Positions 5,610 through 59,395 of a DNA stretch of 64,000 bases are shown here, piece after piece. Position 1 is the first letter of the stretch. Each line of letters begins with the position of its first letter. The notes beneath the pieces are model-generated. The model made no database searches and had not been told where the DNA came from. It was given only the letters and a program-made list of their open reading frames with translations. The stretch is from Acidimicrobiia bacterium (GTDB taxonomy: Bacteria; Actinomycetota; Acidimicrobiia; Acidimicrobiales; Bin134): the NCBI GenBank assembly GCA_009843865.1, contig VYCQ01000023.1, positions 144,092 to 208,091 of the forward strand. Direction: 5' to 3'. The position numbers and the translations under genes are program-made.

Positions 5610-6398
5610 ATGTGGACTTGCATTTTAGATAAGTTTGCGATGATGAGTCGTTGGGCCTATTTGGAACACGAAGGGCCTATTCCTATTGCCCACCGTGGTG
5701 GAGCAGCCGAAGGCAGTGAGAACACCATGGCAGCGTTCGCAACGACAATAGCTATGGGATATCGCTACTTGGAAACCGATGTGCAACTTACTCGGGATGG
5801 GGTGTTAGTGGTGTTTCATGATCAAAACTTGCAGCGTCTTTGCGGGCAAGCTGATGACATTGCAAACCTGACATGGCGAGATGTAACCACGTTGCGAATC
5901 AACGGCACACACCTTATCCCCCGGTTTGAAGAAGTGCTGGAGGAATGGCCAGATATTAAAATTGCCGTGGATCCCAAACACTATGAGGCCACTGCCCCAT
6001 TGATTGAAGTTCTACAACGAGCCAATGCCATTAAGCGGGTATGTGTGGGATCGTTCGTGGGCCGTCGGCTTCGAATGGCTAGGCACTTAGGTGGGCCAGA
6101 ATTGTGTACCAGCCTTAGCCCGTGGGAAATAGCGTGCATTCAATTCGCCAGCTATGGACCGTACTGGCGCTCAGTTAGCGGAGTTTGCGCGCAGGTGCCG
6201 TCTGCTGTTTGGGGGGTGCCTATCGTTCATCGGCGCTTTGTACACACCGCGCATAAAATGGGGTTAGCTGTGCATGTTTGGACGATTGATGACCCAGTAG
6301 AAATGCATCGGTTGTTAGACATGGGGGTGGATGGCATTATGACCGACCGGCCCAGCGTATTGCGAAACGTGCTGATAGCGCGAGGCTGTTGGGCTTAA
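5610..6398 (+). CDS. Glycerophosphodiester phosphodiesterase (true start may be 5640/5643)
   Basis: IAHRGG, ENTMAAF, LETDVQLTRDG, HVWTIDD, GVDGIMTDRP. Confidence 0.92.
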   Translation: MWTCILDKFAMMSRWAYLEHEGPIPIAHRGGAAEGSENTMAAFATTIAMGYRYLETDVQLTRDGVLVVFHDQNLQRLCGQADDIANLTWRDVTTLRINGTHLIPRFEEVLEEWPDIKIAVDPKHYEATAPLIEVLQRANAIKRVCVGSFVGRRLRMARHLGGPELCTSLSPWEIACIQFASYGPYWRSVSGVCAQVPSAVWGVPIVHRRFVHTAHKMGLAVHVWTIDDPVEMHRLLDMGVDGIMTDRPSVLRNVLIARGCWA

Positions 6399-6554
6399 AA
6401 GCTAAGCGCCAATCTTGAATATTCCTTAAGACCAGCGAGTTAGTGCTAGTTCGGCAAACCAACCTTAATTCCTACTAAATAGCTGATTAACTCTAGGTTT
6501 TCTGGGGATTTCTACTCACAGCAGTGGATAATCCTGTGGATTTTGTTTTTCAGT

Positions 6555-6582
6555 TTGACATCGGACTACAACACGCTATGGT
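6555..6582 (+). promoter_or_regulatory. SigA-type promoter TTGACA-16nt-TATGGT with no downstream protein gene
   Basis: Perfect -35 at 6555-6560 and TAnnnT -10 at 6577-6582; degenerate DnaA-box-like 9-mers just upstream (6523-6531, 6535-6543). Confidence 0.55.
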
Positions 6583-6588
6583 GAGACC

Positions 6589-6810
6589 ACTGATCAGAGA
6601 CAAGCGGAGTTCGCTGGGTCGCTGTAATGAGCAATGGAAGTCGGTGGCACCATCGAAATCCGAGGTTCAAAAAAGCGGTTCGGTGCCGCAAAGAACTGAT
6701 TGGGAGGGTTCGGTAGGCGTGAGTATCAGCTCACCGCCTAACCGAGACCGATGAGACGGCCCCGAGAAGTCGACCGGTTATTACCGGGAGGCTACTCGGG
6801 GTCTCTTGCA
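6589..6810 (+). ncRNA. Putative structured non-coding RNA of unknown family
   Basis: Three long stems (6644-6689, 6711-6744, 6753-6805) plus a small one (6603-6615) behind a consensus promoter, in the gap between convergent GDPD and gltD. Confidence 0.5.
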
Positions 6811-6864
6811 TATAGCAGAATTTAAACCGTGAACCCGTATCTTGGGAACTTCAGACAATACTGT

Positions 6865-8325
6865 TTAGCGGAGTTGCTGAGCGGTGGGTGGCAGCGGATG
6901 GGGTAATAATGTGTCACCGGTTAGATATTTATCAACAGCGGCGGCACATGCCCTGCCCTCAGCGATGGCCCACACAATCAAGCTTTGACCGCGGCCCATA
7001 TCACCAGCTACAAATACCCCCGCCACGCTGCTCATCCAACCAGCATCGCGCGCTACGGTGCCTTGTGGGGTTAGCTCTACTCCTAAACCCTCCAGTAGTC
7101 CCTCGGTTTCAGGTCCCACAAACCCCATAGCCAACAACACCAGGTCGGCTTGAAATTCTCGCTCGGTACCCTCAATAGGGGTGAAGCTCATACGCCCCCT
7201 AGAAAAGGATTGTTCCACATCTACAGTTCGTAGAGCTTCTAGCTTGCCGTTTGATCCGCTGAACTCCACCGTATTGATGGCGTACACCTGCGTGCCGCCT
7301 TCTTCATGCGCTGACGATGCCCGGTACATCAGCGGCCAAGTGGGCCACGGCGTGGAGTCGGCCCGCTCATCAGGAGGGCGTGCCATGATCTCAAACTGAT
7401 GAATAGACGCAGCACCATGGCGATGGGCAGTGCCCAAGCAATCAGCACCCGTGTCCCCTCCCCCGATGATGATCACATGTTTGCCTGCCGCCGAAAACGG
7501 ATGATCAATCAAATCCCCCTCTTGCACCCTGTTTGCTAGGGGTAGGTACTCCATGGCCTGATGAATCCCTTGCAGCTCTCGTCCCGGAGCTGCCAAATCC
7601 CGCCATTTAGTAGCCCCTCCTGCTAACACCACCGCCTTAAACTGCTTGGTTAATTCGCTTGCGGTGATGTCCTTACCAACATTTATGCCTGTTTGGAATA
7701 CTGTCCCCTCGGCGGTCATTTGCGCGAGGCGACGATCTAGATGACGTTTTTCCATCTTAAATTCAGGAATCCCGTAACGCAGTAAACCTCCAACACGGTC
7801 GGTCCGTTCAAAAACCACCACATCATGTCCCGCGCGAGTGAGCTGTTGAGCTGCTGCTAACCCCGCAGGCCCCGATCCCACAATAGCCACTTTATGGCCT
7901 GTGTGTTGTTTGCTTAACACTGGGGTGATCCACCCCTCTGCCCAAGCTCGATCTACTATTTCCACCTCAACCTGTTTGATGGTGACAGGGTCTTCGTTGA
8001 TGCCTAGCACGCAAGCTGCTTCACAAGGTGCTGGGCAGAGCCGTCCTGTGAACTCTGGAAAGTTGTTGGTGGCATGCAGGCGCTCAATAGCTTCACGCCA
8101 GTGGTCACGATAAACCAGGTCGTTCCAATCAGGGATCAGATTCCCCAGTGGACAACCGTTGTTGCAGAACGGGATGCCACAGTCCATACAACGCGAGGCC
8201 TGTGTTTGCACTGATTTAGGGTTGAAGTCGGTGTAAACCTCTTGCCAATCTTTGATCCGCACGGGCACTGCACGACGTGCTGGCAGTTCGCGGCCATGCT
8301 TTAGGAATCCGTGAACATCACCCAT
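6865..8325 (-). CDS. gltD: Glutamate synthase small subunit
   Basis: [49 protein letters not shown]. Confidence 0.98.
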
Positions 8326-11300
8326 GCGCAGCTGCCATGATGGCTGCTTCGGCGCTAGTTCCTGCGCGCTCGGCTTCGGTTACAGCAGCCAATACCCTCT
8401 TGTAATCTCCTGGCATAACCTTGACAAAGGCAGCAGCTTCGCTAATCCAATTAGCCAAGATGCGTTCAGCTAGCACCGAATCGGTGCTAGTCATGTGTGT
8501 GGTGATACGCTGCCGTAGCCACTCCATATCCTCAGCGTCAAGTGCTTCTAACTCCACCATTGCTCGGTTGACCTTGGCGGGAAATGCACCTTCGGGATCG
8601 TAAATATAAGCGATGCCCCCCGACATTCCCGCCCCAAAGTTTCGTCCGGTGGGTCCTAGAATCACAGTCCTTCCCCCCGTCATATACTCGCAGCCGTGGT
8701 CGCCTACTCCCTCTACAACAGCGATGGCACCGGAGTTACGTACGCAGAAACGCTCCCCTACCAAGCCCCGCAAGTACAATTCTCCGCTGGTGGCACCGTA
8801 ACCGATCACGTTGCCCGCGATTACGTTTTGTTCGGCTGCGAACTTAGCATCGGGATGGGTGGTGACGATTATTCGTCCACCCGAAAGACCTTTTCCTACG
8901 TAATCATTGGCATCTCCGGTCAACTTCAAGGTTATGCCGCGTGGCAAGAAAGCACCGAAACTGTTGCCAGCCGAACCGGTAAAGCTAATCGAAATGGTGT
9001 CATCTGGTAGCCCTTCAGCACCCCACTTAGCTGTTACCTCTGAACCCAACATGGTGCCCACAGTGCGGTTAACGTTGCTGATGGGTAGATCAATGTTTAC
9101 GCTGTGAGCGTTTTGTAGGGCAGGTTTGGCCATGGCGATGAGCTGCTGATCTAAGGTTTTATCCAAGCCATGGTTTTGGATTTGAGTGCAGTAGCGGTCA
9201 GCGGTGGGGTCTATCTCGGGGGCAAACAAGATAGGCGACAAGTTTAGACCTGATGCCTTCCAATGATCCACAGCATCACTCATATCCAAACACTCCACAC
9301 GGCCAATGGCTTCAGCCAAGGTGCGGAACCCTAGCATGGCCAACAATTCCCGTACCTCCTCGGCTACAAACTCCATGAAGTTGATCACAAACTCAGGTGT
9401 CCCAGTGAACTTTTTGCGGAGTTCAGGGTTTTGAGTAGCCACACCCACCGGGCAGGTGTCTAAGTGGCATACCCGCATCATTACACAACCCATCACAACT
9501 AAGGGTGCGGTCGCAAAGCCAAACTCCTCAGCTCCGAGCAGCGCCGCAATCATCACATCTCGACCGGTTTTTAGTTGTCCGTCAGTCTGCACCACGATGC
9601 GATCTCGCAGGCGATTTAACAACAAGGTTTGCTGGGTTTCAGCCAAACCTAACTCCCAAGGGGTGCCAGCGTGTTTGATGGAGGTTAGTGGTGAGGCCCC
9701 TGTGCCTCCATCGTGACCAGAAATAAGCACTACATCGGCATGAGCTTTGGCCACACCAGCCGCCACAGTGCCAACGCCTAACTCAGACACCAGCTTCACA
9801 TGGATACGGGCCTTTGGGTTTGCGTTTTTAAGATCGTGGATGAGCTGAGCTAGATCTTCGATGGAGTAAATGTCGTGGTGCGGTGGTGGCGAGATCAACC
9901 CTACTCCCGGGGTAGAATAACGTACCTGCGCAATCCAAGGCCATACCTTGTATCCGGGAAGCTGCCCGCCTTCACCAGGCTTAGCACCTTGGGCCATTTT
10001 GATCTGGATATCATCGCTGTTTACCAAGTATTCACTGGTAACCCCGAAGCGGCCTGAAGCAGCTTGTTTGATAGCGGAACGGCGCAGATCTCCGTTGGCA
10101 TCAGGCACATAACGGCGGGGATCTTCGCCACCTTCACCAGTATTGGATTTGCCGCCAATCCGGTTCATAGCGATGGCCAAAGTTTCGTGAGCCTCTGAAG
10201 AGATAGAGCCATAGGACATTGCTCCCGTGGAAAAGCGAGCAACTATCTCAGAGACTGGCTCTACTTCTTCAATGGGCACCGCAGAACGTTGTTCGCTGCG
10301 AAATTGGAACATTCCCCGCAATGTGGCTAGTTGTTCCGACTGAGCATTCACCTTTTCGGTGTATTCCTTGAAGATGTCATAACGCCTCTCTTTGGTGGCG
10401 TGTTGAAGCTTGAACACCGTTTCAGGATTGAATAGATGATACTCTCCTTCGCGTCGCCACTGATACTCTCCCCCCCCTTCTAAAGTGCGGTGAGCCCGTT
10501 CATCGGGATTTTCGGGAAAAGCTATCCGATGACGCAAGCGAATCTCTTTGGCCAGCTGCGTATAGCCAATTCCTCCGAGACGGCTGACGGTACCGGTAAA
10601 ACATTGATCTACCAAGCTGTGGCCAAGCCCGATAGCTTCAAAGATTTGTGCGCCCACATAAGATTTCACAGTAGAAATGCCCATCTTGGACATCACCTTC
10701 AAAACACCCTTGTCGCAAGCCGTGATGTAGTTACGATGAGCGGCTTGGATGTTGTCGGTTGGATCAAAACCATGCAACCCTTCTTGGATCATCTGAGTGA
10801 TGGTTTCAAACACTAAATAAGGGTTTATCGCTGTGGCACCATAGGCCAGCAATAAGCAGATGTGATGCACTTCACGAGCGTCTCCGGCTTCTACTACCAG
10901 CCCAACGCGAGTACGGGTCTTTTCCCTAATGAGATGGTGGTGAACCGCAGCGGTGGCCAGCAGGGAAGGCACCGGAGCATTGTCGGCATCGACACCTCGA
11001 TCCGATAACACGATGATGTTTTTGCCAGCATCAATGGCTTGGCTCACTTGTTGGCAAATGCGCGCAATAGCTAAGCGCAGCCCCGCCCCGCCGCCATCCA
11101 CCTTATAGAGACAAGCCACCACCTCACTAGACCAGTGGGCCTTCCCCTCAGGGCCATCCACATTCACAAGATTGGCTAGTTGTTGAGCGTTGATAACCGG
11201 ATGTTGAGTGAAGATTTGGCGACAAGACTCTGGCTGAGGGTCAAGCAGATTGCCTTCTGGTCCTAGCCAGCCGCAGGTGGCGGTAATTATTTCTTCGCGA

Positions 11301-57659: not shown

Positions 57660-59395
57660 CGGGGCAAATCTTGCTGAGAGGGATCTACGACAACCTCACT
57701 GTTGGTCTTGCCCGCAGGCACCATGGGCAACACGTTTTCTTCGGCCTCGCAACGGAACTCCACCACCACGGGACGGTCATCAACCTCGTTGGCTTTGACT
57801 ATCGCAGGTTCCACCTCTTCAGGAGAATCCACCCGAATTCCCACACAACCCAAAGCCTCAGCCCACTTCTTATAGTCAGGCACATCACGATCTAGATAAA
57901 CCTCAGAGTAGCGCTCTTCGTAGAACATTTCCTGCCATTGGCGGACCATGCCCAGATAAGAGTTATTGATCAACGCCACCTTGATGGGAAAACCCTCGGT
58001 GGTGGCCGTCACCAATTCTTGAGCAGTCATCTGAAAGCAACCATCACCGTCCACCGCCCAAATCATACGATCAGGCTTGCCAGCTTTAGCACCTATAGCA
58101 GCAGGAATAGCAAAGCCCATGGTACCCAAACCGCCAGAGTTCACCCAGGTGTAGGGATGGTTGAACTTCCAATACTGGCTTGTCCACATTTGATGCTGGC
58201 CCACCCCCGAAGCCACGATTGTGTCATCTGGGGTTGAGTCACGCAGCTTTTCTAGCACATACTGCGGCTTCAACAACTCACCTGGCTGCGACTGCTCGTA
58301 GGTAAGCGGAAAACGTTCTTGCCATCCGCTAATGCGAGAACGCCACTGGCTGCGATCTGGCTGGCTCTCAACTCCTCCCTCAGCTTTAAGCACCTCCACA
58401 AGCTCTTCGATTACAACACGGCAATCACCTTGGATAGCTATATCAGGACGACGTACCTTTCCTAGTTCCGCGCTGTCAATATCAACATGGATCACCTTAG
58501 CCAGCGGGGCGAAGCCATCTACCTTGCCTGTTACACGGTCATCAAAACGAGCACCTAGTGCGATAAGCAGGTCAGCTTCTTGCATGGCAGTAACAGCGGT
58601 GTAGTTGCCGTGCATGCCAGGCATGCCCAAACCCAACGGGTGCTCATCGGGAAAGCCCCCTCGGTTCATCAATGTGGTAACCACATGAATGCTAGTTAGT
58701 TCGGCCAACTCCAAAAGTGCCTCTGCCGCACGCGCTTTCAAAATACCGCCGCCCGTGTAAAGCACCGGACGCTCAGCCGCACAAATCAACTTAGCGGCAT
58801 GGCGGATTTGCTCAGGGTCACCGTGTAAGTTGGGAGAGTAACCTGGCAAGTCATGATCTTTAGGCGTGCGCCACTCCATAGCTGAACGGGGATTATTAGG
58901 GTCAACGATGTCCTTGGGGATATCCACTAGTACGGGGCCCGGTCGACCCGTGGTGGCGATGTGAAAAGCATCATGGATCACCTGAGGAATATCAGCAGCC
59001 TCGGTAACCAAGTAATTGTGTTTGGTAACCGCCATGGTGATGCCGGTGGTATCACACTCTTGAAAAGCGTCGGTCCCGATGGCGGCATAAGGTACCTGAC
59101 CGGTCACCACAACCATTGGGATGGAGTCCATGTAGGCATCGCAAAGCGGGGTAACAATGTTGGTGGCCGCAGGGCCGGAAGTGACCATGGCGACCCCGGG
59201 TTGTCCGGTAGCGTGAGCATATCCCTCGGCCATGTGTCCCGCGCCTTGTTCGTGGCGGACCAGCACATGGCGAATGGAGGAGTCTAAAAGCGGATCGTAC
59301 ACCGGCAAGATTGCACCGCCGGGCAGCCCAAACAAAATGCTTACCCCCTCATTTTCGAGGGCTTTCATTAGGGCTTGTCCGCCGTTCATCTTCAT
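57656..59395 (-). CDS. ilvB: Acetolactate synthase large subunit
   Basis: RHEQGAGHMAEGYA, TSGPAATN, GMPGMHG, GDGCFQM...NN. Confidence 0.97.
   Translation of the reverse strand: MKMNGGQALMKALENEGVSILFGLPGGAILPVYDPLLDSSIRHVLVRHEQGAGHMAEGYAHATGQPGVAMVTSGPAATNIVTPLCDAYMDSIPMVVVTGQVPYAAIGTDAFQECDTTGITMAVTKHNYLVTEAADIPQVIHDAFHIATTGRPGPVLVDIPKDIVDPNNPRSAMEWRTPKDHDLPGYSPNLHGDPEQIRHAAKLICAAERPVLYTGGGILKARAAEALLELAELTSIHVVTTLMNRGGFPDEHPLGLGMPGMHGNYTAVTAMQEADLLIALGARFDDRVTGKVDGFAPLAKVIHVDIDSAELGKVRRPDIAIQGDCRVVIEELVEVLKAEGGVESQPDRSQWRSRISGWQERFPLTYEQSQPGELLKPQYVLEKLRDSTPDDTIVASGVGQHQMWTSQYWKFNHPYTWVNSGGLGTMGFAIPAAIGAKAGKPDRMIWAVDGDGCFQMTAQELVTATTEGFPIKVALINNSYLGMVRQWQEMFYEERYSEVYLDRDVPDYKKWAEALGCVGIRVDSPEEVEPAIVKANEVDDRPVVVEFRCEAEENVLPMVPAGKTNSEVVVDPSQQDLPR

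Follow-up and report, generated by a model that had tools for sequence, protein, structure and literature searches.

Results

A predicted RNA gene between GDPD and a gltD-like gene

The window, by which we mean the whole 64,000-nt stretch of Acidimicrobiia DNA that was analysed, contains an intergenic gap of 466 bp between a GDPD gene on the + strand (5610–6398; Pfam GDPD, 1.4e-44) and a convergent gltD-like gene on the − strand (6865–8325; Fer4_20 and Pyr_redox_2). The first-pass annotation had placed in this gap an orphan, promoter-driven and highly structured RNA. A promoter scan recovered the claimed promoter, TTGACA -16- TATGGT, on the + strand at 6555–6582 (TATGGT at 6577–6582) with 10/12 matches, and returned 2 promoter-like sites vs. 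0.6 ± 0.8 in shuffled sequence. Both the −35 (CTTGACC) and the −10 are kept throughout the genus, and the −35 is kept in other families too. With its start placed by promoter geometry and its end by the limit of conservation, the predicted RNA is ~224 nt long (6589–6812, + strand); homology to relatives is confined to 6484–6809, the remaining spacer being without conservation. The + strand at 6580–6815 folds with a minimum free energy (MFE) of −112.2 kcal/mol (z = −8.37), a value equalled by 0/200 shuffles, while the − strand of the RNA region has a z-score of −3.32. With the promoter found and a fold z-score near −8.4, the proposed structured RNA between GDPD and gltD is borne out.

The structured RNA locus has one match in the 1.79-Mb genome of the window and one locus per relative, and is thus not the MITE/REP repeat that had been named as a possible refutation. 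A flank scan located GDPD upstream and on the same strand in the window and in the genomes G022 and G005, and GDPD is a neighbour of the RNA gene only within the genus. The second flank varies even there, with gltD in the window and an alpha/beta hydrolase in G005, and gltD is a neighbour of the RNA gene in neither G022 nor G005. In other families a gamma-glutamyltranspeptidase, an ABC permease or XdhC lies beside the gene. Because the flanking genes vary between families and the downstream gene is convergent, the RNA gene is not a leader, in agreement with the original view of an orphan gene with no downstream gene to regulate. Further, no conserved reading frame was found among the relatives, in which insertions of varying length occur in a short hairpin.

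Fold and covariation

In the MFE fold and in the RNAalifold consensus of 36 distinct genus-level RNAs (64 pairs), the RNA is predicted to consist of three domains, with a middle hairpin between a 5′ domain and a 3′ hairpin. The 5′ domain (6590–6703, + strand) is closed by P1 (6590–6597 with 6696–6703), which appears in both the MFE fold and the genus consensus, and it contains a near-invariant apical hairpin at 6641–6656 (UCGGUGGCACCAUCGA) and a short hairpin at 6603–6615 which is the place of variable insertions in relatives. The latter is the AGCGG/TCGCT stem of the first-pass annotation, and that claim stands in part: 95% of cells are paired in the 36 relatives, and ~20–90 nt are inserted exactly in its loop, but its covariation is not decisive and it competes with a distal GCGG/CCGC pairing (6604–6607 with 6686–6689) that is preferred by both the MFE fold and RNAalifold. 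The middle hairpin, or domain 2 (6710–6745, + strand; 6710–6724 with 6729–6745 in the MFE fold), lies in a region which is variable among relatives and in them carries a GCAA-capped helix; the stem predicted there earlier, CGGT-AGGCG-TGAG/CTCA-CGCCT-ACCG (6711–6744), is present in the MFE fold and in the genus consensus.

The family-defining 3′ hairpin occupies 6753–6807 on the + strand (6753–6771 with 6790–6807; apical helix 6774–6778 with 6783–6787), so that the long bulged stem proposed for 6753–6805 was recovered, slightly extended, in both the MFE fold and the genus consensus. In the window it reads CCCCGAG-A-AGUC-GA-CCGGU / ACCGG-GA-GGCU-A-CUCGGGG, with a covarying basal extension, and scores 74.8 bits with the hairpin covariance model R1. 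It is terminator-like, but its U tract in the window is weak, and the promoter/terminator scan did not call it a terminator. Two further pairings that had been suggested are not favoured. The stem GTGGCACC/GGTGCCGC (as RNA, GUGGCACC/GGUGCCGC) conflicts with the consensus, and a U-to-C change in GGUGCC (4/36 sequences) improves the consensus pair from G-U to G-C and would break the A-U pair of the suggested stem. For the alternative pairing of the 5′ AGAGAC with the 3′ GTCTCT, the 5′ side is near-invariant whereas the 3′ side varies between U and C, and the GTCTCT side is already taken by the basal 3′ stem, which covaries.

Among the 36 RNAs, 97.9% of cells form standard pairs, compared with 32–53% when the partners are slid by 1–3 columns. 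Seven pairs show double changes, and the observed measures were reached by 0/500 shuffles. This support from inside the genus is modest, since the set is made up of near relatives and its own alignment supplied the structure under test. The window sequence, the most diverged of the set, holds 5/9 of the double-change cells, among which P1 accounts for two and the basal 3′ stem for one. In 64 distinct hairpins the outermost modelled pair of the basal 3′ stem is AU in 9, GC in 49 and GU in 5.

Catalogue status and distribution of the family

In a search of the whole window against Rfam 15 at gathering scores, no family was matched; E-value mode on the RNA region (E ≤ 10) returned chance matches only (F6, 1.6; Twister-P5, 2.2; MIAT, 1.5), and 12 homologous loci searched at E ≤ 0.1 gave nothing. 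Of the interpretation first offered, 'a new class' proves to be the better half. RNase P RNA and SRP RNA were rejected as identities, both being located elsewhere in the genome; 6C RNA was not found in a search whose control was itself weakly detected. A literature search retrieved nothing specific on an RNA of such a kind or on an sRNA regulated by DnaA. That the locus is a genuine gene for a structured RNA, transcribed on its own and belonging to an uncatalogued family, we consider very probable.

By BLAST, the RNA locus is present in 21/24 congeneric genomes at ~70% identity, with one locus each, and the 3′ hairpin alone in 2/16 genomes of other families of the order. An exact scan of 185,579 species genomes for the hairpin pattern yielded 69 further loci, nearly all of them from Acidimicrobiia/Acidimicrobiales (Ca. 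Poriferisocius, Ca. Aldehydirespirator, Iamiaceae and Microthrixaceae). The covariance model R1 at E ≤ 0.001 matched 32/151 sampled genomes of the class (29/82 genera) and none in two of its well-sampled families (0/17 and 0/35). Across the family the length from promoter to hairpin runs from ~180 to ~600 nt and the RNA bodies are barely alignable between families; what is constant is the 3′ hairpin together with the promoter and its upstream boxes. The hairpin consensus, CCCCGAG-R-AGYY-GA-helix-loop-helix-GA-GGYU-A-CUCGGGG, carries an R-A mismatch and tandem G-A/A-G pairs, and its apical helix covaries (CCGGU/ACCGG, CCAGC/GCUGG, CCGAC/GUCGG). Its invariance in the loci L031–L099 is partly circular, as these were found with the same pattern; its near-invariance in the BLAST-found loci of the genus is independent of that pattern.

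In a sample of the phylum, 17/151 genomes match the hairpin model at E ≤ 0.01. Score alone is no proof of homology here, since out-of-class matches reach 26–37 bits and the antisense of true hairpins reaches 20–32 bits. We therefore kept as out-of-class candidates those matches that contain GAGRAG…YUACUYGGG, namely those in f28, a family of another class, and the loci L112, L114 and L117; L115, L119, L120 and L124–L127 were not among them and were set aside, and nothing claimed here depends on L120, which comes from the unpublished genome G091. In f28, 6/10 genomes match (one genus 5/5), at L113, L116, L118, L121, L122 and L123. L113, L116, L121 and L123 have a ~300-nt unit that is headed by CTGGGGATTGACC and closes with GGCCCCGAGGAG…GAGGCCUACUCGGGGC, near variants of both head and end occur at L118 and L122, and XdhC lies downstream in the five f28 loci with scanned flanks (all but L122). 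L112, L114 and L117 share the motif with compensatory changes (CCCCAAG/CUUGGGG in L112), and a promoter-like site directly before the hairpin of L114 suggests a minimal form. Relatives of the RNA in other classes of Actinomycetota are thus possible.

A phased array of boxes upstream of the promoter

Degenerate DnaA-box-like 9-mers in front of the promoter had been mentioned only in passing by the first-pass annotation; they are real, and they are the most informative feature of the locus. With distances counted upstream of the T of TTGAC, the box TGTGGATTT (6535–6543) lies at −20, AGTGGATAA (6523–6531; 8/9 matches to TGTGGATAA) at −32, and TGGGGATTT (6503–6511), a DnaA-box-like sequence of the TGGGGA type, at −52, all of them on the + strand. 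An alignment of 22 genus loci places a degenerate remnant of a distal box, CTGATTAAC, at 6483–6491 on the same strand, about −72 from the −35, where relatives have CTGTGGTTAA. In 65 distinct upstream regions, NG[GT]GGA cores are forward in 183 cases vs. reverse in 4, and boxes stand at 19–21 nt in 65/65, at 31–33 nt in 40/65 and at 52–53 nt in 63/65 regions, some of which have extra boxes near 74, 85 and 96 nt. The repeat unit is C-T-G-(G/T)-G-G-A-T-T-T-C, 11 nt in length, with spacings of 11–12 and 20–21 nt. Genome-wide the NG[GT]GGA core occurs at 1.65/kb, and its 3 occurrences in 85 nt compare with 0.14 expected (Poisson P = 4e-4); triplets of same-strand cores within 60 nt number only 6 in the whole genome, the present one included.

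The canonical core of the DnaA box is TGTGGA, and boxes of both the TGTGGA and the TGGGGA type recur at replication genes. In the window genome, the dnaA promoter has an inverted pair, TTATCCACA…TGTGGATAA, and the AT-rich dnaA–dnaN spacer contains TGGGGATAA, GGTGGATTA, TTTTCCACA and ATTTCCACT. Direct rows of TGGGGA-type boxes are found in the dnaA–dnaN spacers of G001, where four lie within ~50 nt, and similarly of G022 and G043. In the spacer upstream of dnaB, TCCCCA-type boxes alternate with TCCACA-type boxes at 10–12-nt steps in 5/5 relatives examined, as exemplified by the G022 row AAATCCCCA, TTGTCCACC, ATATCCACG and CCTTCCCCT (at +11, +10 and +11), and the rplI–dnaB spacer of the window genome has three same-strand boxes at 10–11-nt steps. 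In these mixed rows the TGGGGA box shares phased arrays with canonical DnaA boxes. The recurrence of both types at the dnaA promoter, in the dnaA–dnaN spacer and upstream of dnaB indicates that the boxes at the sRNA promoter are most likely DnaA boxes. To our knowledge, the DnaA box consensus has never been determined experimentally for Acidimicrobiia.

When clusters in the window genome were ranked with a position weight matrix (PWM) whose core was anchored and whose source was the sRNA boxes, the sRNA promoter came 3rd, the dnaA promoter 4th and the rplI–dnaB spacer 5th. In 1st place was a site in front of a DEAD/DUF3516 helicase gene, with CTTGACC and three canonical boxes. The high-ranking PWM clusters C5, C26, C40 and the one at 58887–58920 of the window lie inside coding sequence and were discarded as chance. 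As a separate observation, the window genome has two genes for a ribonucleotide reductase large subunit, and one of them is preceded by TCCACA-type boxes.

OmpR/PhoB-type response regulators also bind 11-nt direct-repeat arrays, and the boxes of the same RNA gene might be read by such a regulator, or by another one, instead of DnaA. The 11-nt unit with its spacings of 11–12 and 20–21 nt would suit it, the core met most often is TGGGGA and not the canonical TGTGGA, and the sRNA boxes of G042 (TGGGGATT) are unlike those at its origin (CGTGGACAA). We nevertheless regard a different regulator as rather unlikely, given that in the five relatives examined the TGGGGA-type boxes before dnaB are phased with canonical ones of the TCCACA type, that TGGGGA-type boxes occur in the dnaA–dnaN spacers of the window genome, G001, G022 and G043, and that the window box AGTGGATAA is one mismatch away from the genome's own dnaA-promoter box. 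That the array is a DnaA array gating the promoter is, by comparison, a probable reading. Phased DnaA-type boxes beside a promoter are likewise seen at DnaA-controlled promoters (dnaA autoregulation, nrdAB and the B. subtilis clusters), from which the present case differs in that the product is a non-coding RNA and that the −20/−32/−52 geometry is kept across families. Insofar as the accessible text of PMC5988900 covers the matter, the DnaA boxes reported in front of ncRNAs to date are predictions only, made in Caulobacter.

Comparison with Ms1, 6S and raiA motif RNAs

Ms1 (Mycobacterium Ms1/MTS2823, Streptomyces scr3559) binds the RNA polymerase core. It is transcribed towards the origin, is abundant in stationary phase, and its fold also has two short hairpins near the ends. 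According to the accessible parts of two papers (PMC4191392, PMC9130861), Ms1 is ~300 nt long in M. smegmatis and ~230 nt in S. coelicolor, and forms a rod with a central bubble, its gene being flanked by that of a HAD-IB hydrolase and situated close to the origin. The available text of the latter traces Ms1 in 14 orders of Actinomycetia without listing Acidimicrobiia, and states that Rfam detects Ms1 only near mycobacteria (PMC9130861).

We judged likeness to Ms1 by Rfam, by published descriptions and by a motif search of a supplement. The window RNA could be a Ms1/6S-like RNA that sequesters RNA polymerase, as an Acidimicrobiia counterpart of Ms1 which has moved away from the HAD-IB locus. 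The two share the phylum Actinomycetota, a single-gene unit, a sigma-A-like promoter, a terminator-like end, a highly structured RNA of a few hundred nt (200–300 nt) and fast sequence divergence between lineages, as far as the consulted portions of PMC4191392 and PMC9130861 describe them, and the niche would appear open, Ms1 being unreported from Acidimicrobiia in the text available (PMC9130861) and 6S RNA undetected in the genome.

The differences make such a counterpart improbable. Besides the absence of an Rfam match at E ≤ 10 (window region) or E ≤ 0.1 (12 loci), no HAD family is present among the flanking ORFs scanned at the window and 14 further loci; the two HAD-IB genes of the genome lie on contig C36 instead of C11, and the search for a folded spacer next to them was negative (z of −0.06 and −1.3 for the one candidate spacer). 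Nor is the gene close to the origin: in three complete genomes its distance from dnaA is ~1.45 Mb (G022, 3.6 Mb), 1.0 Mb (G001, 3.5 Mb) and ~1.4 Mb (G041, 3.9 Mb). The consensus fold is predicted to have three domains where Ms1 is a rod with a bubble, a comparison which for folds of >200 nt is not decisive. The hairpin motifs CTCGGGG, TACTCGGGG, CCCCGAGGAG and CCCCGAGAAG are absent from the supplement of the Ms1 paper, and none of them recurs in the probes and primers that its accessible text gives for S. coelicolor; one probe, …TTACTCGGGACC, had looked similar and was dropped, as it lies upstream of the Ms1 start according to the text seen of PMC9130861. A DnaA-box array is not mentioned in those portions of the Ms1 literature that were consulted.

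For 6S RNA (RF00013), a search of the whole genome at E ≤ 1 gave no match, with 5/14 control genomes positive. The window RNA is like 6S RNA in being a stand-alone structured RNA, and no 6S RNA was detected elsewhere in the genome; it is unlike it in the family's length of 180–600 nt and in a predicted fold that does not resemble the ~180-nt rod with a central bubble.

The raiA motif RNA (RF03072), known from Bacillota and Actinomycetota, is a structured orphan among ncRNAs, its biochemical function not being established; it has 51 conserved nucleotides, the helices P1–P6 and two pseudoknots. Like the window RNA it is single-copy, ~200 nt long, has its own promoter and varied gene contexts, and occurs in the same order, its presence in Acidimicrobiia being reported in the accessible text of PMC10861870. 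The window RNA differs in giving no RF03072 match: at E ≤ 0.1 none was obtained in the window genome or in 24 congeners (0/25 of the genus), whereas 7/16 genomes from other families of the order score 133–157 bits. In three related genomes the raiA RNAs differ in sequence and lack both the boxes and the 3′ hairpin, and in 2/3 of those inspected the raiA RNA is followed by an ORF that looks HPF/RaiA-like, a reading made by eye and not by a scan. Co-occurrence of raiA and the structured RNA was 0 in 41 and 0 in 151 genomes (chance ~0.2–0.3), which allows no conclusion. As the comparisons with Ms1, 6S and raiA established membership in none of them, the idea of an RNA polymerase binder is left unsupported. 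It seems doubtful to us that RNA polymerase is the partner of the RNA, and of the first proposal, '6S/Ms1-like or a new class', the second limb is the better one and the first, with neither an RF00013 match nor HAD-IB synteny behind it, is not supported.

Discussion

The reading that we prefer, at a probability of roughly 50% for the model as a whole, is that the locus encodes a stand-alone, structured, trans-acting ncRNA of an uncatalogued Acidimicrobiia family behind a DnaA-type array. Transcription would start at the sigma-A-type promoter, upstream of which helically phased DnaA-type boxes in the same orientation stand at −20, −32 and −52 and, in decayed form, near −72. Promoter output would be set by DnaA filling the array, in which case the amount of RNA would track the state of replication initiation. 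The RNA body appears plastic (~180–600 nt), and the long 3′ hairpin may be its constant functional module, most likely a protein-binding and stabilising element that is also the end of the transcript. Action in trans through this hairpin as a protein-binding module is a proposition on which we are evenly divided. We infer DnaA binding, the direction of regulation, production of the RNA and its partner from sequence. In the literature searched, no experimental case of a DnaA-array-to-RNA circuit was found in any bacterium.

A bolder version of this model, put forward as a speculation, would make the RNA an unrecognised housekeeping class of Actinomycetota, in which ATP-DnaA on a low-affinity phased array switches on an abundant structured RNA whose invariant 3′ hairpin binds a core machine, be it RNA polymerase, the ribosome or a replication factor. 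If true, replication initiation would be coupled to global gene expression, and the array would be a cell-cycle sensor with an RNA output.

The RNA might act as a base-pairing sRNA on mRNAs by means of a conserved single-stranded seed. Its stand-alone nature, its terminator-like 3′ hairpin and its conserved, purine-rich unpaired stretches would be compatible with this, and some members have an excess of GGAG/GGGA/AGGA words (19 vs. 11.2 ± 3.4 and 41 vs. 22.1 ± 4.8). However, the enrichment of GGA-type words is inconsistent across members, being absent in L071, L078 and L089, the length of the RNA varies three-fold, and the sole constant across families is a closed hairpin, not a loop, all of which makes base pairing through a seed quite unlikely.

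The boxes could also serve at the level of DNA, as a site for DnaA titration or the DnaA cycle of the datA/DARS kind, with a transcript that is incidental or modulates occupancy. DnaA-type boxes are indeed clustered here at a long distance from the origin, and in E. coli datA is likewise next to a transcribed unit, a strongly transcribed tRNA operon from which read-through affects datA, as given in the accessible text of PMC10950094. Against such a site, the families agree to within 1 nt in the distance from boxes to promoter, as control of a promoter would require. In addition, the RNA fold is kept by compensatory changes and its 3′ hairpin conserved across families, and transcription is directed away from the boxes; we hold a titration site to be very unlikely. 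Finally, although the hairpin lies 53–58 nt past the gltD stop on the opposite strand and GDPD is upstream on the same strand genus-wide, an ordinary feature, be it a MITE/REP repeat, a terminator belonging to GDPD or gltBD, or the 3′ UTR of either, can practically be dismissed in view of the one copy per genome, the change of neighbours (no gltD in G022/G005, no GDPD in other families), the conserved promoter of the RNA gene itself and the much weaker fold of the − strand.

Two elements of the stand-alone RNA model are new. The first is the distribution of the structured RNA in the class and the phylum, together with its failure to group with Ms1, 6S or raiA; the second is the putative DnaA-type identity, with fixed geometry, of the repeats upstream of the promoter of a structured RNA. 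Acidimicrobiia are abundant bacteria of marine, freshwater, soil and sponge-associated habitats, and their RNA biology is almost nil. We know of no 6S RNA in Actinomycetota. The window genome, at 1.79 Mb about half the size of those of its congeners, still keeps the RNA gene, and its function is therefore likely to be an important one. A concrete hypothesis, that DnaA controls an RNA gene, comes from the conserved DnaA-type array, and, if true, the DnaA regulon would extend to non-coding RNA. The 3′ hairpin offers a defined handle on the partner of the RNA, and the family merits a place in the catalogues, its locus being otherwise annotated as an empty spacer.

DnaA-box-like sequences elsewhere in the genome

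When box clusters across the genome holding the window (G000) were ranked with a position weight matrix built from the boxes of the RNA gene themselves, the first rank was taken by a cluster of DnaA-box-like 9-mers lying outside the window (L135; contig C18, 30516-30633), upstream of a minus-strand gene for a DEAD/DUF3516 helicase. Here, three near-canonical boxes, TGTGGACAA, TGTGGATAG and TGTGGATAA, are followed by CTTGACC, and a fourth, TGGGGATTA, lies downstream of the -35 element. Two TCCACA-type boxes, AAATCCACA and CTTTCCACA, placed 32 nt apart on contig C2 (roughly 9,600-9,650), were found about 250 nt upstream of an ORF (6636-9371, minus strand) that encodes a 912-aa ribonucleotide reductase large subunit. 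Three box-like 9-mers also cluster at window positions 58887-58920 within a 579-aa ORF on the minus strand; we take the cluster to be a chance occurrence.

The rplI-dnaB spacer carries a row of DnaA-type boxes phased at 10-12 nt (L134; contig C7, 17670-17700). In five related genomes (L136-L140), the dnaB-spacer row mixes TCCCCA-type with TCCACA-type boxes, and this mixture in the sequences suggests that the DnaA of this lineage tolerates G at box position 3.

Other features of the RNA family and its genomic distribution

GGAG, GGGA and AGGA words occur at about twice the frequency of mononucleotide shuffles in some members of the RNA family (L050, L034, L099, L043 and L094), and the same RNAs are low in U (7-16%). 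Against such shuffles, no excess of these words was seen in the members L071, L078 and L089. A locus from another order of Acidimicrobiia (L119; G175, contig C46) has two similar hairpins, CCCCGAGAGGG…CCCUCGGGG, at a distance of about 410 nt from each other. Several CCCGAGAGGG tetraloop hairpins occupy the intervening stretch, and the locus may represent a different repeated-hairpin RNA.

The raiA motif RNA (RF03072) was detected in 7 of 16 genomes from other families of the order (for example L131-L133 in G036, G028 and G025) and in none of the 25 genomes of the window's genus. No genome searched contained both this RNA and the one studied here, numbers too small to establish mutual exclusion.

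At 1.79 Mb (98% complete, 53.7% G+C), compared with 2.2-4.1 Mb in its congeners, the genome holding the window is a reduced one. It nevertheless still keeps the RNA gene, in a copy whose variable hairpin is the shortest seen and in which one of the boxes has decayed.
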